The translations under genes and the position numbers were made by a program. Shown here one piece after another: positions 14,860-53,860 of a stretch of DNA of 64,000 nt; the first letter of the stretch is position 1; each line of letters begins with the position of its first letter. The stretch covers positions 6,469 to 70,468 of the forward strand of contig JBNIDO010000004.1 of the NCBI GenBank assembly GCA_050108095.1, read 5' to 3'. Under the pieces are notes generated by a model. The model saw only the letters and a list, made by a program, of their open reading frames with translations. It made no database searches and was not told the origin of the DNA. Source of the stretch: Candidatus Bathyarchaeia archaeon (GTDB taxonomy: Archaea > Thermoproteota > Bathyarchaeia > Bathyarchaeales > Bathycorpusculaceae).

Positions 14860-14930
14860 CTGCTTGTGGAAATCGCCTCAACCAGCCATCAACCCCACCC
14901 AGTTGGAGAACACAAAACACAGCCGCTCAC
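14860..14930 (-). repeat. Dispersed element, partial copy (3' module only)
   Basis: Minus strand GAGCGGCTGTGTTTTGTGTTCTCCAAC..GGTTGATGGCTGGTTGAGGCGATTTCCACAAGC. Confidence 0.7.
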
Positions 14931-14980
14931 TAATCTCACTTAATTTTAGTGGATGGATTTGAAAATAAAAAAGAGGAGGT

Positions 14981-16411: not shown

Positions 16412-16545
16412 TCTGCTTGCGGTTTGCTCCACAACCAACCTGCAACCCAAAGCAGACGCAGACACCAAAACAAAGCCGTCTACAGAACCCACAGGTTGTT
16501 GTTGTGTATAGGCGCTTTTCAGCAGCAACAAATATAGAAAAAAGG
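16412..16545 (-). repeat. Dispersed element, full copy (TTGTTG-type hairpin 1)
   Basis: Minus strand TTTTTTCTATAT.TTGTTGCTG..CAACAACAA..GACGGCTTTGTTTTGG..GGTTGCAGGTTGGTTGTGGAGCAAACCGCAAGC. Confidence 0.8.
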
Positions 16546-16581
16546 ATTTACCCTAAAAATCAACTGAAAAGACCATGAAAC

Positions 16582-29149: not shown

Positions 29150-29722
29150 CTACATATACATCCTAAGCACTTTGCTTTTCTGGAGCAAATAAAGGGCGAC
29201 CCCGCTTATTATCAGTTCAGGCAAGAGGTAGCTGCCATTGTAGACTGCTGAGTAAACGTATGGGTTTATGGTGGGTGCATAGACAGGTCCCCAGTAGAAC
29301 ACGCCTGCGACGAAATGCATAATGAAGCGTCCGCTGATACCGACTGCGGCTCCCAATACTGGATACTTAGGGAAGAAGCCAGATAAGCCCAACACACCGA
29401 ACGCAAGCGGGTAGTCGAGTAGCACCTGGATTATTGCATCTGGCACTGGAGCGATGTAGGGTAGAGCTGCAAATTGTATTAAGCCATAGATGACTCCTGC
29501 GGTTATGCCGACTTTGGGTCCGCGTCGAAGCGACAGCCAAATAATCGGCACCATAGACGCCAAAGTGATTGAGCCGCCCTGTGGCAGGGTGTAGATGATT
29601 ATGAAGCTAAGAGCTGTGCCTAAGGCGATAAAAATCGCCATTTCAGCTAAAACTCGTGGGTTTTTGAAGGATTTTTGATATTTACTTGATTGGTTTATAG
29701 ATTCTGGTTTGTTTGTTTGCAC
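29150..29722 (-). CDS. thiT: Energy-coupled thiamine transporter S component ThiT
   Basis: LAEMAIFIAL, LPQGGSIT, QVLLDYPLAF, RFIMHFVAGVFYW, YSAVYNGSYL; TPP riboswitch upstream. Confidence 0.9.
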   Translation of the reverse strand: MQTNKPESINQSSKYQKSFKNPRVLAEMAIFIALGTALSFIIIYTLPQGGSITLASMVPIIWLSLRRGPKVGITAGVIYGLIQFAALPYIAPVPDAIIQVLLDYPLAFGVLGLSGFFPKYPVLGAAVGISGRFIMHFVAGVFYWGPVYAPTINPYVYSAVYNGSYLLPELIISGVALYLLQKSKVLRMYM

Positions 29723-29726
29723 TTGT

Positions 29727-29816
29727 TTTCCCTCCGCCAGTATTACCTGGGTCAGGTTCGCAGGGTCGACAGAAGGTACTGTCCTCTCAGCCGGGTCCTA
29801 TCCCAGCTCCCCAAGA
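29727..29816 (-). ncRNA. TPP riboswitch
   Basis: Minus strand GGGGAGC..CTGAGAGG..GACCCT..AACCTGACCCAGGTAATACTGGCGGAGGGA, directly upstream of thiT. Confidence 0.92.
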
Positions 29817-29867
29817 ACTGAAAAAAGTAAGCCACAGTGGAGAATATAGGTTTTGCGTCGTTTGCCT

Positions 29868-34780: not shown

Positions 34781-34911
34781 AATTTTTGTTTAGTTGTTGT
34801 TGCAGTAAACCGCCTATACACAACAACAACCAGTCGGCTTGGCAGAACTATGTGTTTTGGATTCAGCAGTCTCCTGTGATTGCAGGCTGGTTGTGGCGTC
34901 TGCTGCAAGCG
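34781..34911 (+). repeat. Dispersed element, tandem copy b (TTGTTG-type hairpin 1)
   Basis: GTTGTTGTTG..CGCCTATACACAACAACAAC..GTGTTTTGG..TTGCAGGCTGGTTGTGGCGTCTGCTGCAAGC. Confidence 0.8.
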
Positions 34912-38978: not shown

Positions 38979-39716
38979 ATGGCGAAGAAGGTTGGTTTAA
39001 TCGGTTGTGGCGCAATCGGCACCGTACTTGCAGAAGCCATCGAACGCAAACTTGTCGTTTGCGACGAACTGATAGTCTACGACACAAATGTTGCTCAAGC
39101 AATCAAGCTCAAGAACAGACTCAAATTTCCAGTTAAAATCGTCGCCACCGTAGATGAGCTACTAGAGGCTAAGCCAAAAGTCGTCGTTGAAGCAGCAGGG
39201 CAAGGCGCAGTCCACCAGTACTACGACAGGCTCGTTGCATCCGAAGCTGAGCTGATTTTCATGAGCACAGGCGCGCTACTGGACCATGACACCAAAAACC
39301 CCCGTGTGCACTTCCCTGCGGGCGCAATCGGCGGGCTTGACGCCATCGCCGCAGTAGTCAACGCAGGCATCACCGAAGTCACGTTGACGAGCCGCAAAAA
39401 CCCCAAAGCACTCAGCAAGCAACTCAAAGAGGAAACCGTAACCTTCGAAGGAGACGCTGAAGAAGCCGCAAGGCAGTTCCCACGTGAAATGAACGTTGCC
39501 GCCACCCTCGCGTTAACGGTTAAACCCGCCAAAGTGCATGTGAAAGTCGTTGCAGACCCCAAAGTCACAAGAAACACCCACCAAATCCACGTCAAATGGC
39601 ACTACGGCGAAATGAAACTTGAGTTTGCTAACGCCCCCCCCCCTGCCAACCCCCACACCAGCGCATTAGCGGCTTGGGCAGCCATAAGATTGCTCCAATC
39701 GCTGCTGAAAAAATAA
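38979..39716 (+). CDS. nadX: L-aspartate dehydrogenase
   Basis: GLIGCGAIG, VVEAAG, GAIGGLD, FEGDAEEAARQFPREMNVAA, NPHTSALAA. Confidence 0.88.
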   Translation: MAKKVGLIGCGAIGTVLAEAIERKLVVCDELIVYDTNVAQAIKLKNRLKFPVKIVATVDELLEAKPKVVVEAAGQGAVHQYYDRLVASEAELIFMSTGALLDHDTKNPRVHFPAGAIGGLDAIAAVVNAGITEVTLTSRKNPKALSKQLKEETVTFEGDAEEAARQFPREMNVAATLALTVKPAKVHVKVVADPKVTRNTHQIHVKWHYGEMKLEFANAPPPANPHTSALAAWAAIRLLQSLLKK

Positions 39717-42570: not shown

Positions 42571-43485
42571 TTACTCCAAGAACTGACTCAGGTATTGCGT
42601 GATTGCCTCGTAAGCTTGTGGTTCGTCGGGTCCATTTCGGTTGCCCTTTTCGTCTATGCCGATTAGTTGTTCGCCGTCGCTTTCAGACACAGGCTCATTG
42701 TACTTAATCCGAAACACGCATCGAACTACCGCTTCACCGTCCACCTCAAACGACAGCAGCGGATACCTCACACCCGGCAAAATCACGTCATATTCACCCT
42801 CAGACTTGCGTTCAACCAAGAAAACTTTGGCTTCCCCCAACGCGAGAAGGCTCCGCAGAAGCGAGCATCCATACGGAGGGAGAGTGGCTTGCTCTAATTT
42901 GCGGGCGCACTGTTTTGCCTCCACGATTTTGGCGGCGAACACGTCGCTGCTCCAGAGTTCAACGCCCAACCGCTTCGCCTCCAAAGCTACCCCATCCGTG
43001 AACTGCGTGGTGACGATGATGATTGGTCGGCTGCAGGTATGGACGCTCTGCGTTTGCTGGGAAACCACAAAGATCGCCTCCGACACCGCATGGCTTTGCG
43101 GGTATTTCCGCGCTAAAACAGCCACTTTTTCGCCGTTCAGTTCAGCTACGAAATCAACGCCCCAATCAACCGTGCATCGACTCTGGACTTCGAAGCCCAA
43201 CTCTTCAAGCACCCACTGTACAAAAACCCCAAACTCCTTTTGCGAGAGGCACTTAACGGCGTAGACGGCTGGTTCTGCGGCAACATCGGTTATTATGGAT
43301 TTTTTCTCCAAAATCCTCCACACACCAACCTGTTCATTCGCGGTTTGGCTGTGCTCCTTTCTTATCCTCGCCGCCAACACCTCCGCCTTATCCAACGGAA
43401 CCCCCAACCGCTCCCCCAAAAACACCGCTAAATCCCCGTCGGCTTGCTCGGCGCATTCTTTTAGGATGCCACAGTATTTTTTCAT
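42571..43485 (-). CDS. Mrr-like (PD-(D/E)XK) restriction endonuclease-domain protein with degenerate catalytic motif
   Basis: LSQKEFGVFV..LGFEV..DWGVDFVA..VAVLARKY..IIVTTQFT..GVELW. Confidence 0.7.
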   Translation of the reverse strand: MKKYCGILKECAEQADGDLAVFLGERLGVPLDKAEVLAARIRKEHSQTANEQVGVWRILEKKSIITDVAAEPAVYAVKCLSQKEFGVFVQWVLEELGFEVQSRCTVDWGVDFVAELNGEKVAVLARKYPQSHAVSEAIFVVSQQTQSVHTCSRPIIIVTTQFTDGVALEAKRLGVELWSSDVFAAKIVEAKQCARKLEQATLPPYGCSLLRSLLALGEAKVFLVERKSEGEYDVILPGVRYPLLSFEVDGEAVVRCVFRIKYNEPVSESDGEQLIGIDEKGNRNGPDEPQAYEAITQYLSQFLE

Positions 43486-43486
43486 T

Positions 43487-44836
43487 TTAGGGCTCCTTTT
43501 TGGCGTGTTTGGGGCAGAGTTTCTTTTGGAATTCGTTGGTGTAGGTGAGGTTTAGTTTGGAGAAGACTTTGCCGCAGACGTCGCAGAGGTCATAGTGGTG
43601 GATGCATACGCTTGTGTTGTCGTGGTTGCAGCGGAATTCGAGGAGGCGGCTGTGGCGTTTGCCGCAGACAGAGCAGACAAAGCCTTTGTCACGTTCAAAG
43701 TATTCTCCCAATGACTCGTCGAGGGTTAAAGGCGCCTTTTTCGAGTACAGTTTACCTGTGTCGACCGATTGTCGGGTGCAGTCACCGCATACGTAGAAAC
43801 CGTCCTCAGTGGCGAAGCCCTCCGCGATGTTTTTCTTGCATGTTTGGCACGTGACTTCTGGAGCGCCGATGCCTATGGTGGTGGCACACTGTATCACCGC
43901 TCCGTTATCAAGGGATACTTCGAACTTAACCTTCGCCGTGTTGATAACAAGCAGATTAAGCAGTTTCACATTGACGTTGGTCTGGTAAGTTTCCTCTTCC
44001 CTCTCCAAAAGCGCCTCGAAATCGGTTTGCCACTTCTGAAAGTCAAAATCATGCTTCTTCGAGATAACCCGTTCCCGCCGCTCTCGCCTTAGTCGTCGCT
44101 CAAAATTCCGCAGTCTCGCCCTCTTTTCTTCAACGAGCGGCAAATCAAACAGCCTCACCTTCTCTTTGATTAGAGCCCCCAGTTGCATGTCCGCTGAGGC
44201 TTTTAACGTGTCGTAGGCTTGTGGTTTTAGCTTAGACTTGAAATCCTGAACTCTTAACTCTTCATTACCCAGCACATCCCCCACCTCGAAGTCACGGTCG
44301 CCTAGACAGTTACCCTCTTCATCGAGCAGGATGCTGATGGTTTCTTCGCTTTTTGCTCTGAGCTTGTTCTGGAAGCTAACGGCGTAGTAGAACTGGAAGA
44401 ATCGGGCAGGCTCCTTTTTGGTGACTTTTGCGGAGACGATTTTGCCGTTGTTTATCTGGTGAAAACACGGCTCCGACCGGGTACAGACTCGGACGCCTTC
44501 CCGGGTCAATTGGGCTTTTTGGCAGTACATGCAGGCCTCGGAAGAATACCTGAAATACCCCTCTAATAGCGCCTCGAAGCTCTCTTTGGGGCTGAGGCTG
44601 ATTTGGCATAGCACGCCGTTTTCTAAGGATTCTTTGAGTATCTGCTGGAACGCTGGGCTGCCTGTGGTGATGAGTGGTATTTTCTTTTCTCTGGCGACGG
44701 CGGGTTGATAGGTAAATTGCTGTGTGCCATCTGGGTAGGCTACGGTGACAGTGTCATCTGTCCCCCCAGCGATTTTGCCTCCCCTACTCTGGATGTAGGC
44801 TTCAAAGAACCTGCGGATTTCACATTCGCTGCTCAA
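43487..44836 (-). CDS. YqhG-like multi-Zn-finger protein
   Basis: CMYC..C..C, CQTC..CGDC, CSVC..C..CIHH..CDVC..CPKH; overlaps the SNF2 gene by ATGA. Confidence 0.65.
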   Translation of the reverse strand: MSSECEIRRFFEAYIQSRGGKIAGGTDDTVTVAYPDGTQQFTYQPAVAREKKIPLITTGSPAFQQILKESLENGVLCQISLSPKESFEALLEGYFRYSSEACMYCQKAQLTREGVRVCTRSEPCFHQINNGKIVSAKVTKKEPARFFQFYYAVSFQNKLRAKSEETISILLDEEGNCLGDRDFEVGDVLGNEELRVQDFKSKLKPQAYDTLKASADMQLGALIKEKVRLFDLPLVEEKRARLRNFERRLRRERRERVISKKHDFDFQKWQTDFEALLEREEETYQTNVNVKLLNLLVINTAKVKFEVSLDNGAVIQCATTIGIGAPEVTCQTCKKNIAEGFATEDGFYVCGDCTRQSVDTGKLYSKKAPLTLDESLGEYFERDKGFVCSVCGKRHSRLLEFRCNHDNTSVCIHHYDLCDVCGKVFSKLNLTYTNEFQKKLCPKHAKKEP

Positions 44837-46809
44837 TCCAGTACCCCTTGAGTGAATTGTTCCGCTAACTCCTGATTCTCCCTCACAAAATTGAGGTCAC
44901 TCGCCAGTTTCTCCAGTTCACGCTGAATGTCGAGGCGACTGCGGCTTCTGAGCAGGATTTCGCCGATGGTTTTCTGGATGTCTTGTGAGCCCTCTTTGAG
45001 TTCTGAGAGTACTGTTTCCATTTTCCCCACGGTCATGGTGAACAAGTCGATTTTTTGGTAGAGAACATGGAGTACGTAGTCGTCGATGGTGTCTTTGACG
45101 GCTAAGTTGAAGATGGTTACGTCGCGGTCCTGTTTGTAGCGGTGGATGCGTCCTATGCGTTGCTCGATTTTCATGGGGTTCCAGTGCAGGTCGTAGTTGA
45201 ACATGACGCAACAATTCTGCAGGTTGAGGCCTTCCGCGGCGGCGTCGGTGGCGACAAGATACTTGGTTTCGCCGCTCTTGAAACTGGCGATAACATGGTC
45301 TCTTTCCGCCTGGTTCATGTCACCAACGTATACGGCGGCTTTGCCATATTCAGCGTCGAGAAGTTCCTTGATTTTGCGGGCAGTAATCTTGCGCAAACAA
45401 AAAATCACCGCCTGCTCCTTAGGTGCCTCGTTTAAGACGTTTCTTAGTAGCTCCATCTTTGCCCCTTTCACTTTGGACGCCATCTCAATCAGCTTATCAG
45501 TAGCTTCCTTTTCCATCGGAAACCGTTGCTGCCTCTTCCTCAACGATTCCACCGTTGCAAACGGCGAACTCGAAAATGACTGCTGCAATGTTATGGCTTG
45601 GAAAACCAAAATCGCGTTGCTCTGGGACGCAGTGAGTTTTCTGTTGGGGTTCTCGGCGACTAGGGTTTCGATGGTTTTGAAGTGGTTATTGCTTACTTTG
45701 CGTAGATACTCGGTTGCTTCCTCAATGAATTCCCGCTCGTACTGGTTGGGTTCGAGTGTTCTGGATTCGACACACCGCTTGGTAAACGGGATGCCTGTCT
45801 GTTCCCTCCGAGTGCGACACATCACATTACGTATGGTTTGCCTAAGATAGCTCGCTTCCTGCTCCTTTATCACGCGACTTCTAGCGTCCTCGGCGAACCG
45901 TTGGATAAACGCGCGTTCGCTGTCCAAACGCCCCGGCTCAATCAAATCCACGATGCTGTAGAGGTCTGTTAAGCGGTTACACAGCGGAGTCGCGGTAAGC
46001 AGAAGCATATGATTTTTTCTAAGACTTGACAGCGCTTGGCGACCTTTGCTGTGGGCGTTGCGGAAAGCATGCGCCTCATCCACCACAACCAAATCCCACG
46101 TCCGCTTCACAAACTTTTCATACTTCCTCACGAGCAGGTTATGGGAACAGATCAGTCTGTTGCCCGTTTTCAGATTAGCCCGTTCGCCTGGTACGTTGGC
46201 GATGGAGAATGCTTCGCCGAATTTCTCTGACATCTCGCCTTTCCACTGTGAAAGTAAACTCTTGGGCGCAACAATCAAAACTGAATTGACTTCTTCCCTG
46301 AGCAGCAGCTCCTTCATGATTAAGCCGGCTTCGATTGTTTTGCCCAAGCCCACTTCGTCGGCGAGGATGGCGTTGCCGTTCATTTCGTTGATAACTTGGA
46401 GCGCGGTGTGGAGTTGGAAGTTGTAGGGGATTAGTTTTGTTCGGATGGCGTCGGTTGCGATTAAGCGGTCGATTTTGTCGGTTTGCTTGATTTTTGCGGC
46501 TTCCAAGTTGAGGAGAAACTTTTCGAATGGGGTATAGTTGTTTTTTTGGATGTTGTTTCTTAGGTTATGTGGGTCAAGGTAGGAACATGTGTAATAGTGT
46601 TTTGCAGGTTCACCGCTTGGGTTTTCCTCGTCGTATTCGCAGGCGACTGAGGTTTCCTGTGGTTTAGCGGCTGGTTTATTTTTTTTGGTTTTTGTTTCTG
46701 GTTTAACTGAGTAGTCGACGATTATGGGTTCCGTAGTTTTCTTGCAGAGTGAACCGTCGACTTTTCTAGATAGGGGTTCGCCGCTTTTTTCGTTGAAGCT
46801 TCCAGACAA
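44833..46809 (-). CDS. SNF2-family helicase/ATPase (YqhH/RapA-like)
   Basis: ILADEVGLGKTIEAG, VVVDEAH, LLLTATP, EGLNLQ, NYDLHWNPMKIEQRIGRIHR. Confidence 0.93.
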   Translation of the reverse strand: MSGSFNEKSGEPLSRKVDGSLCKKTTEPIIVDYSVKPETKTKKNKPAAKPQETSVACEYDEENPSGEPAKHYYTCSYLDPHNLRNNIQKNNYTPFEKFLLNLEAAKIKQTDKIDRLIATDAIRTKLIPYNFQLHTALQVINEMNGNAILADEVGLGKTIEAGLIMKELLLREEVNSVLIVAPKSLLSQWKGEMSEKFGEAFSIANVPGERANLKTGNRLICSHNLLVRKYEKFVKRTWDLVVVDEAHAFRNAHSKGRQALSSLRKNHMLLLTATPLCNRLTDLYSIVDLIEPGRLDSERAFIQRFAEDARSRVIKEQEASYLRQTIRNVMCRTRREQTGIPFTKRCVESRTLEPNQYEREFIEEATEYLRKVSNNHFKTIETLVAENPNRKLTASQSNAILVFQAITLQQSFSSSPFATVESLRKRQQRFPMEKEATDKLIEMASKVKGAKMELLRNVLNEAPKEQAVIFCLRKITARKIKELLDAEYGKAAVYVGDMNQAERDHVIASFKSGETKYLVATDAAAEGLNLQNCCVMFNYDLHWNPMKIEQRIGRIHRYKQDRDVTIFNLAVKDTIDDYVLHVLYQKIDLFTMTVGKMETVLSELKEGSQDIQKTIGEILLRSRSRLDIQRELEKLASDLNFVRENQELAEQFTQGVLD

Positions 46810-47006
46810 GAGTATCGCAAATTACTCGACGTCTAAATATAAAAACCTAAAGCCCAACCTTGGCAGGCTTCTTTGCCTAATTCAAGAGCTGCAACATCGA
46901 TTAGCTATAGAAATGCTGACTAGTTTCGCGAATTTTTGCATTTGAATTCACGCAACCCCTGAATGCTAAATGAGCAAGATACTCGGGATAAACACTCGCA
47001 AAAACA

Positions 47007-47134
47007 ATTTTCTATTATTAGAAGAAGACAGGATGCCCCTTGCTCATCTTCTTCTTGGAAATTGTGTGGGCGGCTGCATTTTACGTTTAGGCGCGTCGGC
47101 ATATTGCTGATTGGTTGTGGAGCAAGTACAAGCA
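47007..47134 (+). repeat. Dispersed element, full copy (AGAAGAAGA type)
   Basis: TTTTCTATTATTAGAAGAAGACAGGATGCCCCTTGCTCATCTTCTTCTT nearly identical to the reverse complement of 58414-58464; GGGCGGCTG..TTGGTTGTGGAGCAAGTACAAGC. Confidence 0.8.
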
Positions 47135-47230
47135 TAAAGAAGATGATTAAGAGCGCAAATCACCTGCCTTTTTGTCTCCACGGATTCCCTAAACAGTTAT
47201 TAGGTCTTTACTGCATGTTGAAACATCAAC

Positions 47231-48952: not shown

Positions 48953-49027
48953 CGGGTCCGACGGGAGTTGAACCCGCGACCCTCGGATTAAAAGTCCGAT
49001 GCTCTAGCCTGACTGAGCTACGGACCC
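48953..49027 (-). tRNA. tRNA-Lys (UUU), no intron
   Basis: GGGTCCG/CGGACCC acceptor stem; TCGGA-CTTTTAA-TCCGA anticodon arm; GGTTCAACTCC T-loop. Confidence 0.96.
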
Positions 49028-49875: not shown

Positions 49876-51549
49876 TTGATTTCATGGAAATACACGTTTA
49901 AGCGTATAAACGAAGAATACGAAATCGCCACCAAGAAGAAGCAGGCCCTAGATAACCTCTGCGCTTCAGGCAAGATTTCACAAGCAACCCACGACTCATT
50001 CACAAGCGACATCGTTAAAGCCATAGCCGAGCTTGAAAACCAACGCAAAGACCTCGGAGAGAAAATGCAGGCAAAAACACTCGAGCTTGAAGGGCAACTT
50101 AAAACGCTCGAAATGTTGCTTGCCAACTACGAAATCCAACATGTCGTAGGCGAAATTGATGACGAAATTTACACTCGCGAAATTAACCTTCTAGCAACTA
50201 CCCTTGAAACAACCAAGAATGAATTAGGCACAATCAGAGAGGCGACTAGTCAACTTTTCACTTCCCCCAAACCAATAGAAGCTCCAGTAGCGGCTGAACC
50301 AGTCGCTGAAGCTGCGCCCGTACAATCAACCCCCGTTGAAGTTCCAGTTGAAACTGCCACAATCGCACCCGCAATCGTGGAAACAGTGCCAGCTGCCGAA
50401 CCTACATCAGTTGAAATAGCGCCAGCCGAAGCACCAGTCGAACCTGCCCCAGTTGAAGCCGCCCCGATAGAAGCTGCACCCATAGAGGCTCCAGTTGAGG
50501 CAGCCCCCGTAGAAGCAGCTCCAATCGAAACCGCTCCAGTTGAAGCCCCCGTTGAGTCTGCACCGGTTGAGTGCGCTCCCGCAGAAATAGCAATAGTTGA
50601 AACACCCATCGAAGAAGCCCCAATCGAAGCACCCGTAGTTGAAGCCGCTCCAATCGAAGAAACCGCCCCCGCAATTGAAACCCCGGTTGAAGCAGCACCA
50701 ATTGAAGCTGCGCCCATAGAGACCACTGTTGAGGCAGCCCCAGTAGAGGAGCCAATCGTGGAAGCTCCAATTGAAGAAGCTGCTCCAGTAGAAACCTCCA
50801 TCGAAACAGCAACAGTTGAAACACCTGCAATCGAGGAAGCACCTGTCGCTGAAGCTCCAGTTGTCGAGTCAGCCCCCGTGGAATTGCCAGTTGAAACCGC
50901 CCCAGTTGAGGCTACACCAGTCGAAACAGAAACAGCGCCAGAAACCGAAGCGCCGGTAGCACTCGAAACTCCAGTCATCGAGACTCCAGTCGTTGAAGCC
51001 GCCCCTGAATCAGCGGAAGAAACTCCAATCGCCTCCGCAGAGGAAGAAATACAAATCATCGCCGAGCCAGCCGCAGAAGCAGTATTCGATGAACCAATCA
51101 TCGAGGAAGCACCTGCCACTGAACTAGTAGCAGAAGCAGCCCCAATTGAAGAGCCAATCGTGGAAGCTTCAGTTGAAGAAGCCGCTCCAGTTGAGACTCC
51201 ACTCGTTGAAGAAGCTCCAGCAGTCGAAGAAACCCCTATGGAAACTGCAACTCAAGAAATCATTGAAGACGCTCCAGCTGAAGTGATAGCTGAAGCCCCC
51301 GCAGAACCAGTTGTCGAGGCTCCTTTGCAATCATTCGAAGTTACCGAGCATACTTCAACAGAAATCACCCTTGATAAAGCATTAGAAGAAGCAACAATTG
51401 TAGAGCAACTTCAGCCAGTTATCGTGGAGGAGGTCCACGTGCCAGCCCACCCTACAGAAGCGCCCGAGCAGGCGCCTTCAGAAGAGACCGCAGAGGCAGA
51501 CCAATCCCCCCAAGCAGAAGAAAGCGACGAAAGCACCACAACTAATTAA
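49876..51549 (+). CDS. CdvA-like coiled-coil protein with long acidic Pro/Ala/Glu/Val repeat tail
   Basis: N-terminal KKKQALDNL..GKISQ..LEMLLANYEIQHVVGEIDDE; tail of EAAPI/EAPV units. Confidence 0.75.
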   Translation: MISWKYTFKRINEEYEIATKKKQALDNLCASGKISQATHDSFTSDIVKAIAELENQRKDLGEKMQAKTLELEGQLKTLEMLLANYEIQHVVGEIDDEIYTREINLLATTLETTKNELGTIREATSQLFTSPKPIEAPVAAEPVAEAAPVQSTPVEVPVETATIAPAIVETVPAAEPTSVEIAPAEAPVEPAPVEAAPIEAAPIEAPVEAAPVEAAPIETAPVEAPVESAPVECAPAEIAIVETPIEEAPIEAPVVEAAPIEETAPAIETPVEAAPIEAAPIETTVEAAPVEEPIVEAPIEEAAPVETSIETATVETPAIEEAPVAEAPVVESAPVELPVETAPVEATPVETETAPETEAPVALETPVIETPVVEAAPESAEETPIASAEEEIQIIAEPAAEAVFDEPIIEEAPATELVAEAAPIEEPIVEASVEEAAPVETPLVEEAPAVEETPMETATQEIIEDAPAEVIAEAPAEPVVEAPLQSFEVTEHTSTEITLDKALEEATIVEQLQPVIVEEVHVPAHPTEAPEQAPSEETAEADQSPQAEESDESTTTN

Positions 51550-53647: not shown

Positions 53648-53779
53648 CTGCTTGTAGTTTGTTCCACAACCAGCTTGCAATACGTTTTCGTTGCAGAAGC
53701 AAAAAAGCAACCGCCCACACAGCCCCCGAGAAGATGATGAGCAAGGGCAAAACTCTCTTCTTCTAATACTAGAAAAACC
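53648..53779 (-). repeat. Dispersed element, full copy (AGAAGAAGA type)
   Basis: Minus strand TTTTTCTAGTATTAGAAGAAGAG..CTCATCATCTTCT..GGGCGGTTGCTTTTTTGCTTCTGCAAC..TTGCAAGCTGGTTGTGGAACAAACTACAAGC. Confidence 0.8.
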
Positions 53780-53860
53780 AAAGCCACGTTTGATTCCTGT
53801 TTCATAAGTTTGTTGCCAGTCAAACTTATTAGCCAACAAACCAATACATGGATGATTCCT

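Follow-up and report, generated by a model that had tools for sequence, protein, structure and literature searches.

A three-gene module on the minus strand

The window, by which we mean the whole 64-kb stretch of Candidatus Bathyarchaeia archaeon DNA under analysis, carries three co-directional open reading frames on its minus strand at positions 42571-46809 (Table 1). The three genes were originally described as closely joined, and the order SNF2, partner, Mrr, with genes that overlap or lie adjacent, recurs in every related locus that we examined, namely in 8 genomes of the genus, five metagenomic Bathyarchaeia contigs, another family of Thermoproteota, Clostridia, and a high-GC bacterium. 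The stop codon of gene 1 (TGA, 44835-44833) overlaps the putative start codon of gene 2 (TTG, 44836-44834) at the position where an ATGA overlap had been reported, but the sequence there is TTGA. The 1-nt gap reported at the second junction is present, between the TAA of gene 2 (43489-43487) and the ATG of gene 3 at 43485, which is preceded ~8 nt upstream by AGGAG. From our reading of the sequence, gene 1 likewise has a putative TTG start, at 46809; its next in-frame ATG is codon 143, and the exact start is uncertain, because initiation at that ATG would truncate the conserved region. The position of a candidate TATA box (Table 1) would make the gene 1 transcript nearly leaderless. As had been noted before, a copy of a dispersed repeat lies ~200 nt upstream of gene 1 (~47008-47140); it is on the strand opposite to the module and faces a divergent plus-strand gene, and in other genomes we saw no consistent adjacency of the repeat to the module.

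Table 1. Positions of the three genes and their features in the window
Feature	Position	Strand	Evidence
TTTTTATATTTA, possible archaeal TATA box	46834..46845	-	~30 nt upstream of gene 1 TTG, read by eye
Gene 1, SNF2-family ATPase	44833..46809	-	ORF and translation, Pfam
Gene 1, SNF2 N-terminal lobe, motifs I-III (GLGKT, DEAH, TATP)	45664..46383	-	Pfam and motif reading
Gene 1, helicase C-terminal lobe, motifs IV-VI (QRIGRIHR)	45136..45459	-	Pfam and motif reading
Gene 2, 449-aa Cys-rich partner	43487..44836	-	ORF and translation
Gene 2, YqhG-like region, residues 2-307	43916..44833	-	hhalign, AlphaFold2 model, Foldseek
Gene 2, Cys cluster 1 (C102, C105, C118, C124, H126)	44459..44533	-	Homologue alignment columns
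Gene 2, zinc ribbon (C330, C333, C350, C353)	43778..43849	-	Homologue alignment columns
Gene 2, C-terminal Cys/His cluster (C388, C391, C403, C411, H414, C418, C421, C441, H444)	43505..43675	-	Homologue alignment
Gene 3, 304-aa Mrr-fold protein	42571..43485	-	ORF and translation
Gene 3, Mrr-fold core, residues 78-184	42934..43254	-	Homologue alignment, eroded motif
Gene 3, C-terminal domain, residues 205-304	42574..42873	-	Conservation, predicted secondary structure

Gene 1 encodes an intact SNF2 motor

Counted from the TTG, gene 1 encodes 658 amino acids, with a low-complexity stretch (residues 1 to ~95) followed by the ATPase core (~95-610). It belongs to the Snf2 family: motifs I, II (DExH), III, and VI are intact on direct reading, as claimed earlier, and both lobes score above the Pfam gathering cut-offs (SNF2-rel_dom, residues 143-382, 1.8e-36, 126.2 bits against a cut-off of 24.9; Helicase_C, residues 451-558, 4.5e-28, 98.1 bits against 23.5). 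Its closest solved relative is SSO1653 of Sulfolobus solfataricus (PDB 1Z63; 1.1e-34), a Rad54-like SNF2 core that is also archaeal, in a match that spans the N-terminal lobe only. Next comes RapA (HepA) of E. coli, the Swi2/Snf2 ATPase that recycles RNA polymerase (PDB 6BOG, 8SO8, 8T0L), residues 123-643 of which align with residues 95-610 of gene 1. Identity is 43-46% to the SNF2 proteins of the bacterial three-gene modules, 33% to YqhH-like SNF2, and 28-36% to RapA.

Gene 2 is a remote relative of YqhG

Three Cys/His clusters and a coiled coil had been noted in gene 2. The clusters are invariant or nearly so in 71 homologues, and in the AlphaFold2 model (pLDDT 81.8) the helices H205-258 and H266-283 form a long hairpin. 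The zinc ribbon is invariant in all 71 sequences and is retained in distant relatives; bacterial relatives carry long arrays of CxxC repeats at the site of the C-terminal cluster. Close homologues (n=216; 53-83% identity) come without exception from Bathyarchaeia-type MAGs, and a search of 1.84 billion proteins yielded just 51 representatives.

Gene 2 had also been described as YqhG-like, a claim that holds in profile-profile comparison and fails with the Pfam model. The model of YqhG, the family of unknown function PF11079 (cut-off 25 bits), gave no match at E < 0.1 in the gene 2 protein and none in the six-frame translated genome. With hhalign, however, gene 2 residues 2-307 pair with YqhG residues 8-271, that is, with the whole of YqhG, at a probability of 86% and E 4.7e-6 against short YqhG proteins alone, and at E 1.3e-16 and 6.4e-45 when bridging sequences are included. 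All ten of the YqhG-like proteins pass PF11079, including a 680-aa member with CxxC repeats, and a check of gene order placed the YqhG genes immediately after an SNF2 gene. At the superfamily level, then, gene 2 is a remote homologue of the Bacillus protein, detectable by profile-profile comparison. Relative to the short YqhG proteins, Cys cluster 1 is an insertion in the hhalign alignment.

Residues 2-307 are modelled as an alpha/beta domain, a long beta hairpin, the helical hairpin, and a beta hairpin. When this model was compared with the PDB by Foldseek, the top five matches were all RapA entries, among them an N-truncated RapA, and these were the sole significant ones; four had E <= 5.6e-6 at probability 1.0 and the fifth E 4e-3, with a best E of 2.5e-6 over ~320 columns. 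The likeness comes from a single predicted model, at low TM-scores of 0.26-0.30, and the Foldseek output does not give the range of RapA residues matched. The original prediction had overlooked this resemblance of gene 2 to the rear of RapA. Against a single RapA sequence hhalign found no significant match; its best local, non-significant alignment places gene 2 residues 5-51 on RapA 713-774, a stretch of the Spacer domain, whose D744 touches the zinc-binding domain of RNAP beta' (PMC8501970). Since gene 2 is related to YqhG and its model matches only RapA in the PDB, the SNF2 protein and gene 2 resemble a RapA/HepA-type motor divided between two chains.

Gene 3 carries an eroded Mrr fold

In gene 3 a helical hairpin at the N terminus precedes an Mrr-type PD-(D/E)xK fold, which is followed by a C-terminal alpha/beta domain that is more conserved in the homologue alignment than the Mrr core. 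The fold is confirmed in the structural model (pLDDT 88.3), for which Foldseek returned AF1548, MspJI, AspBHI, and NucS. The substitutions reported earlier are as described: gene 3 reads KEFG where the family has KEFE, keeps GVD, and has LARKY in place of the QxKRY of Mrr_cat, so that the catalytic E ... D ... (Q/E)xK pattern becomes G for E86, a retained D111, and L124-A-R126-K127 for QxK. The assignment as a degenerate Mrr protein rests on its family. Gene 3 itself reaches 16.4 bits with Mrr_cat_2 (E 0.009; cut-off 22), whereas a homologue at 81% identity scores 42 bits with Mrr_cat (PF04471; cut-off 21 bits), which nearly all homologues exceed. Among 55 family members E86 is found in 35, D111 in 33, Q124 in 28, and K126 in 5, and the motif is fully canonical in one. 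Erosion of the E/D/QxK motif thus extends to almost all Bathyarchaeial copies, although an eroded site could still cut with a Lys in a shifted position (Q-A-R/I-K). In other lineages the motif has stayed intact, and L030 and G496 both have it in full, the G496 copy matching the nuclease domain of ZorD at 1.1e-21.

Some homologues also pass the Pfam model NA-iREase1 (NACHT-associated inactive REase; 29.8, 28, and 32.3 bits, cut-off 27), which fits a non-cutting REase fold serving as a sensor. However, Mrr_cat outscores NA-iREase1 in every homologue, gene 3 of the window falls below both models, and there is no NACHT/STAND ATPase at the module.

Distribution and selection

Universal conservation in synteny had been named as the finding that would speak for a housekeeping role. 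The module is instead patchy: of 73 good genomes in the genus 46 have it, ~8 of 65 genus carriers have it in fragments, and in G177 genes 1 and 2 are interrupted by numerous stops. Across the other 81 genera of the class there was no full-length match and one weak zinc-finger match (E 1.1e-5), and in a clostridial order 7 of 149 genomes have the module. It is a dispensable, horizontally spread cassette and not part of the housekeeping set. Fusions of genes 2 and 3 occur in several lineages (P0024, P0217, and P0225), and all related loci share both the gene order and the 4-nt overlap, which supports the three genes forming one functional unit. Measured against the closest relative, at dS 0.5-0.7, dN/dS is 0.07 for gene 1, 0.17 for gene 2, and 0.20 for gene 3, compared with 0.13 for the neighbouring AspDH; gene 3 is thus under purifying selection despite its eroded catalytic motif.

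Comparison with known systems

The module is real and undescribed, and is of the YqhH/YqhG kind. It shares with that pair a core-only SNF2 ATPase followed directly by its partner gene. It differs in its archaeal host and accessory status, in the inserted Cys cluster, zinc ribbon, and C-terminal Cys/His module of gene 2, and in the attached Mrr-fold gene, the YqhH/YqhG of Bacillales being a conserved pair without a nuclease. Compared with RapA, the module spreads its parts over two chains, has no counterpart of the RapA N-terminal domain, and adds the zinc modules and the Mrr-fold subunit; gene 1 scores 178.3 bits with the RapA model NF003426, over the core only, against a cut-off of 576.

ZorD of type I Zorya is a SNF2 helicase with a C-terminal Mrr-like nuclease. 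It likewise combines a SNF2 motor with an Mrr nuclease, and gene 1 matches ZorD models at 1e-42, but the nuclease of the module is a separate gene, eroded in the window, and no YqhG-like domain separates the motor from the nuclease in ZorD. The prediction that no full known defence system would be recognised was accurate, all SNF2 matches lying far below the NCBIfam cut-offs. Gene 1 scores 75.7 bits against a ZorD cut-off of 1500, and there is no ZorA, ZorB, or ZorC among its neighbours. For DISARM it reaches 232 and 248 bits against DrmD cut-offs of 610 and 950, and no partners (DrmA, DrmB, methylase) are in the window. For Dpd it reaches 210 bits against a DpdE cut-off of 500, and no dpd genes are nearby.

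What the module may do

Probably, though by no means assuredly, the locus is an accessory cassette for an SNF2 machine with three subunits that belongs to the YqhH/YqhG (split RapA/HepA) kind. Gene 1 would be the core of an ATP-driven double-strand DNA translocase, to which gene 2 would supply in trans the domains that follow the core in RapA (Spacer/CTD-like, equivalent to the YqhG fold) together with the zinc modules. Most likely, gene 2 binds to the motor, controls its ATPase, and directs it to a target. The Mrr-type fold of gene 3 would be tethered to gene 2 and, in the Bathyarchaeial lineage, most likely binds DNA without cutting it, as an anchor or sensor. Such a complex would use ATP to move along DNA, displacing or remodelling a target bound to it; in those lineages whose Mrr site is intact, translocation may be coupled to cleavage. 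We infer the physical complex, the ATPase gating, the non-cutting DNA binding, and the biological target alike. As for the role of such a machine, defence or conflict with mobile DNA is quite plausible, if somewhat short of probable, and the clearing of stalled RNA polymerase or other roadblocks is a tentative alternative; what likelihood is left goes to some other role.

The module might also be a novel kind of defence against phages or plasmids that works in the manner of ZorD or of a Type IV/Type I restriction motor. The motor would load on foreign DNA, the partner and Mrr protein would recognise it (e.g. as modified DNA), and Mrr would cut it, through an active site that is canonical in other lineages but non-canonical in Bathyarchaeia. 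We regard this as rather unlikely. An accessory, loss-prone module with frequent decay does fit defence, as do its spread across domains at 43-46% SNF2 identity between archaea and bacteria and a fast-evolving gene 3 (36-52% identity, against 77-89% for neighbouring housekeeping genes). The intact Mrr of some lineages strongly resembles ZorD nuclease, PDC-S02, and Type IV REase models, and the fold of gene 3 is closest to the modification-dependent MspJI and AspBHI. Some copies also have toxin-antitoxin pairs, an integrase, a terminase, or a dGTPase-like gene in their vicinity, but the flanks, in the window and related loci, are mostly housekeeping or metabolic genes with scattered toxin-antitoxin pairs or mobile-element remnants. 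The suggested proximity to defence islands was not borne out, no copy examined lying in a recognisable one; PADLOC models matched none of the window neighbours, and no methyltransferase or other partner is present at the module. The near-absence of a canonical motif under purifying selection and the nuclease-free base pair of Bacillales also argue against it.

A distinctly low probability attaches to an archaeal counterpart of RapA/HepA, whose motor would engage RNA polymerase and clear the DNA of polymerase in a stalled or post-termination state, or of other roadblocks, with gene 2 as the polymerase contact, like the RapA Spacer, and gene 3 as an inactive DNA-binding accessory. The RapA-only matches of the gene 2 model, the non-significant placement on the Spacer, and the rank of RapA after SSO1653 among solved relatives of the motor all point this way. 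YqhH of B. subtilis goes by the name HepA and appears in a list of RNAP-interacting translocases (PMC7385302), and a TFIIB paralogue adjoins the cassette in two loci. Yet the RapA N-terminal domain is missing, the RapA score is far below its cut-off, and no RNA polymerase genes are linked to the module in the window. Absence from a third of the genus and all sister genera would be odd for a general transcription factor, and the nuclease fold, though some lineages keep it intact, would be left without a role. It is very improbable that the cassette is a decaying, functionless remnant of transfer in the window genome: the fragmented copies, the stops in G177, and the eroded Mrr motif would suit a remnant, but here all three frames are intact, dN/dS is low throughout, and the ATPase motifs and every zinc ligand are conserved.

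Organization of the locus

The three co-directional minus-strand open reading frames described in the original prediction are present exactly where they had been placed, and encode a SNF2 ATPase (gene 1), a Cys-rich partner (gene 2) and an Mrr-fold protein (gene 3). Genes 1 and 2 had been said to share an ATGA overlap. The overlap exists, with the TGA stop of gene 1 lying on the start of gene 2, but that start is TTG, and the junction hence reads TTGA. The 1-nt gap between genes 2 and 3 is as described (the TAA stop of gene 2, one base, then the ATG of gene 3), and AGGAG, in the DNA reading, lies upstream of this ATG. The putative start of gene 1 is also TTG and the first ATG that follows is only at codon 143, leaving the true start site in doubt. 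Approximately 30 nt upstream of gene 1, TTTTTATATTTA could be a candidate archaeal TATA box.

Features of the window, in window positions
Feature	Position	Strand	Remarks
Gene 1 (SNF2 ATPase)	44833-46809	-	658 aa ORF
Gene 2 (Cys-rich partner)	43487-44836	-	449 aa ORF
Gene 3 (Mrr-fold protein)	42571-43485	-	304 aa ORF
Dispersed repeat	512-643, 14863-14933, 16416-16547, 53651-53782, 58338-58469	-	~130 nt
Dispersed repeat	34783-34910, 47008-47140	+	~130 nt
TPP riboswitch	29713-29823	-	Rfam RF00059, 60 bits, gathering score 54.3
tRNA gene	48953-49027	-	between module and PadR/CdvA
CdvA-like cell-division protein	49876-51549	+	long degenerate tandem-repeat tail

Gene 1 is a SNF2 motor

Gene 1 matches the Pfam models SNF2-rel_dom (1.8e-36) and Helicase_C (4.5e-28), and its helicase motifs are intact, as had been predicted (GLGKT, DEAH, TATP, QRIGRIHR). 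PADLOC and NCBIfam models of DrmD, BrxH, DpdE, ZorD, HmaA and RapA also matched, with NCBIfam scores that were all far under the curated cut-offs (DrmD, 248 vs 950; RapA, 178 vs 576; ZorD, 76 vs 1500); these matches reflect the common SNF2 core only. We rejected Zorya, DISARM, Dpd, the BREX helicases and Hma as the identity of the locus, given both the scores and the missing partners. The nearest solved structures by sequence are Sulfolobus SSO1653 and E. coli RapA, and the SNF2 core aligns to residues 123-643 of the latter. Identity to gene 1 is 43-46% for the SNF2 proteins of bacterial modules and 33% for YqhH-like proteins.

Gene 2 resembles YqhG and the rear of RapA

Searches of gene 2 with Pfam, NCBIfam, PADLOC and PDB sequences gave no usable match. 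Its 216 close homologues (53-83% identity) all come from Bathyarchaeia-type MAGs, and only 51 matches were returned when 1.84 billion representative proteins were searched with a profile. The three Cys/His clusters that had been noted have ligands that are invariant, or nearly so, among the homologues. More distant relatives have the N-terminal ~330 residues and the first zinc ribbon in common with gene 2, followed by long CxxC repeat arrays in P0209, P0214, P0216 and P0231, or by a fused Mrr_cat domain in P0217 and P0225.

The label "YqhG-like" needs qualification: the Pfam YqhG model (PF11079) had zero matches in gene 2, and zero in a six-frame search of the whole genome, while remote homology was found by profile-profile comparison with PF11079 members taken from Bacillota genomes. 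The Bathyarchaeial gene 2 family matched short YqhG proteins alone with a probability of 86% (E 4.7e-6; gene 2 residues 2-307 on YqhG 8-271). One PF11079 member of 680 aa has a YqhG match together with CxxC repeats resembling those of P0214; with this bridging protein added, the E-value was 1.3e-16, and with the distant gene 2 relatives in the query too, 6.4e-45. These matches make gene 2 a remote YqhG homologue, with an inserted Cys cluster and extra zinc modules. In every Bacillota locus collected, a SNF2 gene directly precedes the YqhG gene. YqhG proteins have no known function, and little is known of YqhH/HepA in Gram-positive bacteria. The YqhG partner in B. subtilis, YqhH, has been named HepA and described as poorly characterised (PMC7385302).

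When an AlphaFold2 model of gene 2 (pLDDT 81.8) was compared with the PDB by Foldseek, the top five matches were all E. coli RapA, and beyond RapA nothing was significant. Four of these, an N-terminally truncated RapA among them, had E-values of at most 5.6e-6 and a probability of 1.0 over ~320 columns. Since gene 2 is without ATPase motifs, and the core of gene 1 already lies on RapA 123-643, the part matched by the model must be the rear domains of RapA (Spacer/CTD). Comparison of gene 2 or YqhG profiles with the single E. coli RapA sequence by hhalign was not significant, so the link to RapA is one of fold. The best local alignment in that non-significant comparison placed gene 2 residues 5-51 on RapA 713-774, within the Spacer, a domain that touches the β′ zinc-binding domain of RNA polymerase via D744 (PMC8501970).

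The best-supported statement, which is a structural one, is that genes 1 and 2 look like a RapA/HepA-type SNF2 motor split in two chains, of one kind with Bacillus YqhH/YqhG, and that gene 3 is a restriction-endonuclease fold tied to gene 2.

Gene 3 has an eroded nuclease site

Gene 3 of the window scores weakly (Mrr_cat_2, E 0.009); its homologues, including one at 81% identity, pass Mrr_cat, and several additionally pass NA-iREase1, an "inactive restriction endonuclease" model. The structural model (pLDDT 88.3) has fold matches to AF1548, MspJI, AspBHI and NucS, and its predicted fold is PD-(D/E)xK. The description of a degenerate Mrr protein held up, in that gene 3 reads G, D, L and R at catalytic positions E86, D111, Q124 and K126. 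Across the family these residues are kept in 35/55, 33/55, 28/55 and 5/55 members, respectively, and the complete site is canonical in one of the 55. The N-terminal helices and C-terminal ~100 residues are conserved above the nuclease core. A fully canonical site is found in the copy at module locus L030 and in G496, a genome of another Thermoproteota family, whose gene 3 protein matches the ZorD nuclease domain (1.1e-21). An active nuclease was probably the ancestral state, with repeated loss of the site since.

Measured against the closest relative (dS about 0.5-0.7), genes 1, 2 and 3 have dN/dS values of 0.07, 0.17 and 0.20, and the neighbouring aspartate dehydrogenase has 0.13; purifying selection still acts on gene 3 despite its eroded site. 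In this lineage the nuclease motif is eroded yet the protein is maintained; the most economical reading would be a non-cutting DNA-binding or sensing role. Between the window and locus L023, dS of the module genes is 0.53-0.74, roughly half the value of 1.47 for the aspartate dehydrogenase beside them (38979-39716), which may indicate more recent exchange of the cassette, or differing codon constraints.

Linkage and distribution of the module

SNF2, partner and Mrr genes follow one another in this order, overlapping or separated by tiny gaps, in all eight genus genomes examined (8/8). The arrangement is also seen on five metagenomic Bathyarchaeia contigs and two further contigs, in another Thermoproteota family, in Clostridia MAGs, and in a high-GC bacterium whose genes 2 and 3 form one fused gene. 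Of 201 genomes taken from across the class, only those of the window's own genus have gene 2. There it is always single-copy and is carried by 65 of 120 species (46 of 73 good genomes); in about eight carriers it is split or full of stops. In the related species G177 (G177:C6, locus L022, ~7.4-10.7 kb), genes 1 and 2 are in many fragments and the gene 3 frame is open; this locus shares synteny with the window, in an orientation that is inverted with respect to the valyl-tRNA synthetase and aspartate dehydrogenase genes.

Scanning genome contigs with a narrower gene 2 alignment found three Bacillota/Clostridia MAGs, and the cassette is present in 7 of 149 genomes of the order to which one clostridial carrier belongs. 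Phylum-wide profile matches were mostly rejected as unrelated ~1000-aa Cys-repeat proteins picked up via the CxxC part, G496 being the sole true relative. The ~1000-aa ORFs, which occur in many genomes of other Thermoproteota families and match only the CxxC-repeat part of the profile (e.g., G503:C16:3970-4623 and G548:C5:21551-22210), probably represent a separate, widespread Cys-repeat protein family.

Genes for valyl-tRNA synthetase, aspartate dehydrogenase, CdvA, PadR and creatininase lie near the module in the window and in some relatives; other copies adjoin transporters, hydrogenase, EF-2, Lon or FtsY, and near some are toxin-antitoxin pairs, an integrase, a terminase or a dGTPase-like gene. 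No restriction-modification, CRISPR or other recognised system adjoins the module copies, and the unknown neighbours in the window had zero PADLOC matches. A TFIIB paralogue directly adjoins the cassette in two Bathyarchaeia contigs (L025, 6860-7834; L028, 12754-13719), upstream in one and, in the other, downstream on the opposite strand.

Possible roles

The machine would translocate, driven by ATP, and displace its target. Because distribution is patchy across both class and genus, a universal housekeeping role is ruled out. Conflict with mobile DNA is suggested by the accessory, loss-prone and horizontally spread pattern and by the ZorD-like nuclease, and we consider it plausible, if somewhat short of probable. 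The absence of defence islands, together with the relationship to RapA and YqhG, points instead to the clearing of polymerase or other roadblocks, a role we regard as possible and on balance rather doubtful. Either outcome, defence or RapA-like, would be new: we know of no RapA-like factor in archaea and of no described defence system with the make-up of the triad, and no description of the triad was found in the literature searched.

We rate the triad as a variant of YqhH/YqhG, a kind that is known but itself uncharacterised. The RapA-rear fold predicted for the partner gives YqhG and YqhH/HepA a testable job, that of a trans-acting subunit which regulates and targets a SNF2 motor. In archaea and clostridia, the three-gene form brings in a restriction-type nuclease fold that looks active in some lineages but is eroded in others, a natural experiment on nuclease domains becoming sensors. 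A more ambitious and, in our judgement, unlikely proposal is that split-RapA (YqhH/YqhG-type) motors make up a broad class of SNF2 proteins in prokaryotes that has yet to be described, and that the three-gene form is a new kind of translocase-coupled DNA surveillance, with an Mrr effector in some lineages that elsewhere was repeatedly turned into a DNA sensor without cutting activity; among archaea, this would possibly be the first known ATP-driven evictor of RNA polymerase or of foreign DNA-bound complexes.

Other features of the window

The dispersed repeat lacks a conserved ORF and matches no Rfam family. It has three hairpins, the first with the stem AGAAGAAGA/TCTTCTTCT, which in two copies reads GTTGTTG/CAACAAC, a compensatory change. 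Copies also turn up in related genomes of the genus, where they do not consistently neighbour the SNF2 module. The repeat probably represents either a structured non-coding RNA or a miniature mobile element. We rejected it as a part of the system owing to its opposite strand and inconsistent placement.

The segments flanking the module (39.7-42.5 kb and 46.8-49.8 kb) are lower in G+C (0.42-0.45) and contain only small ORFs without family matches; the distance from the tRNA gene to the SNF2 gene start is ~2.1 kb. The tail of the CdvA-like protein is encoded by degenerate 15-nt tandem repeats (50281-51219) and is rich in Pro, Ala, Val and Glu. The TPP riboswitch, here in an archaeal genome, lies just upstream of a minus-strand ORF (29150-29722).
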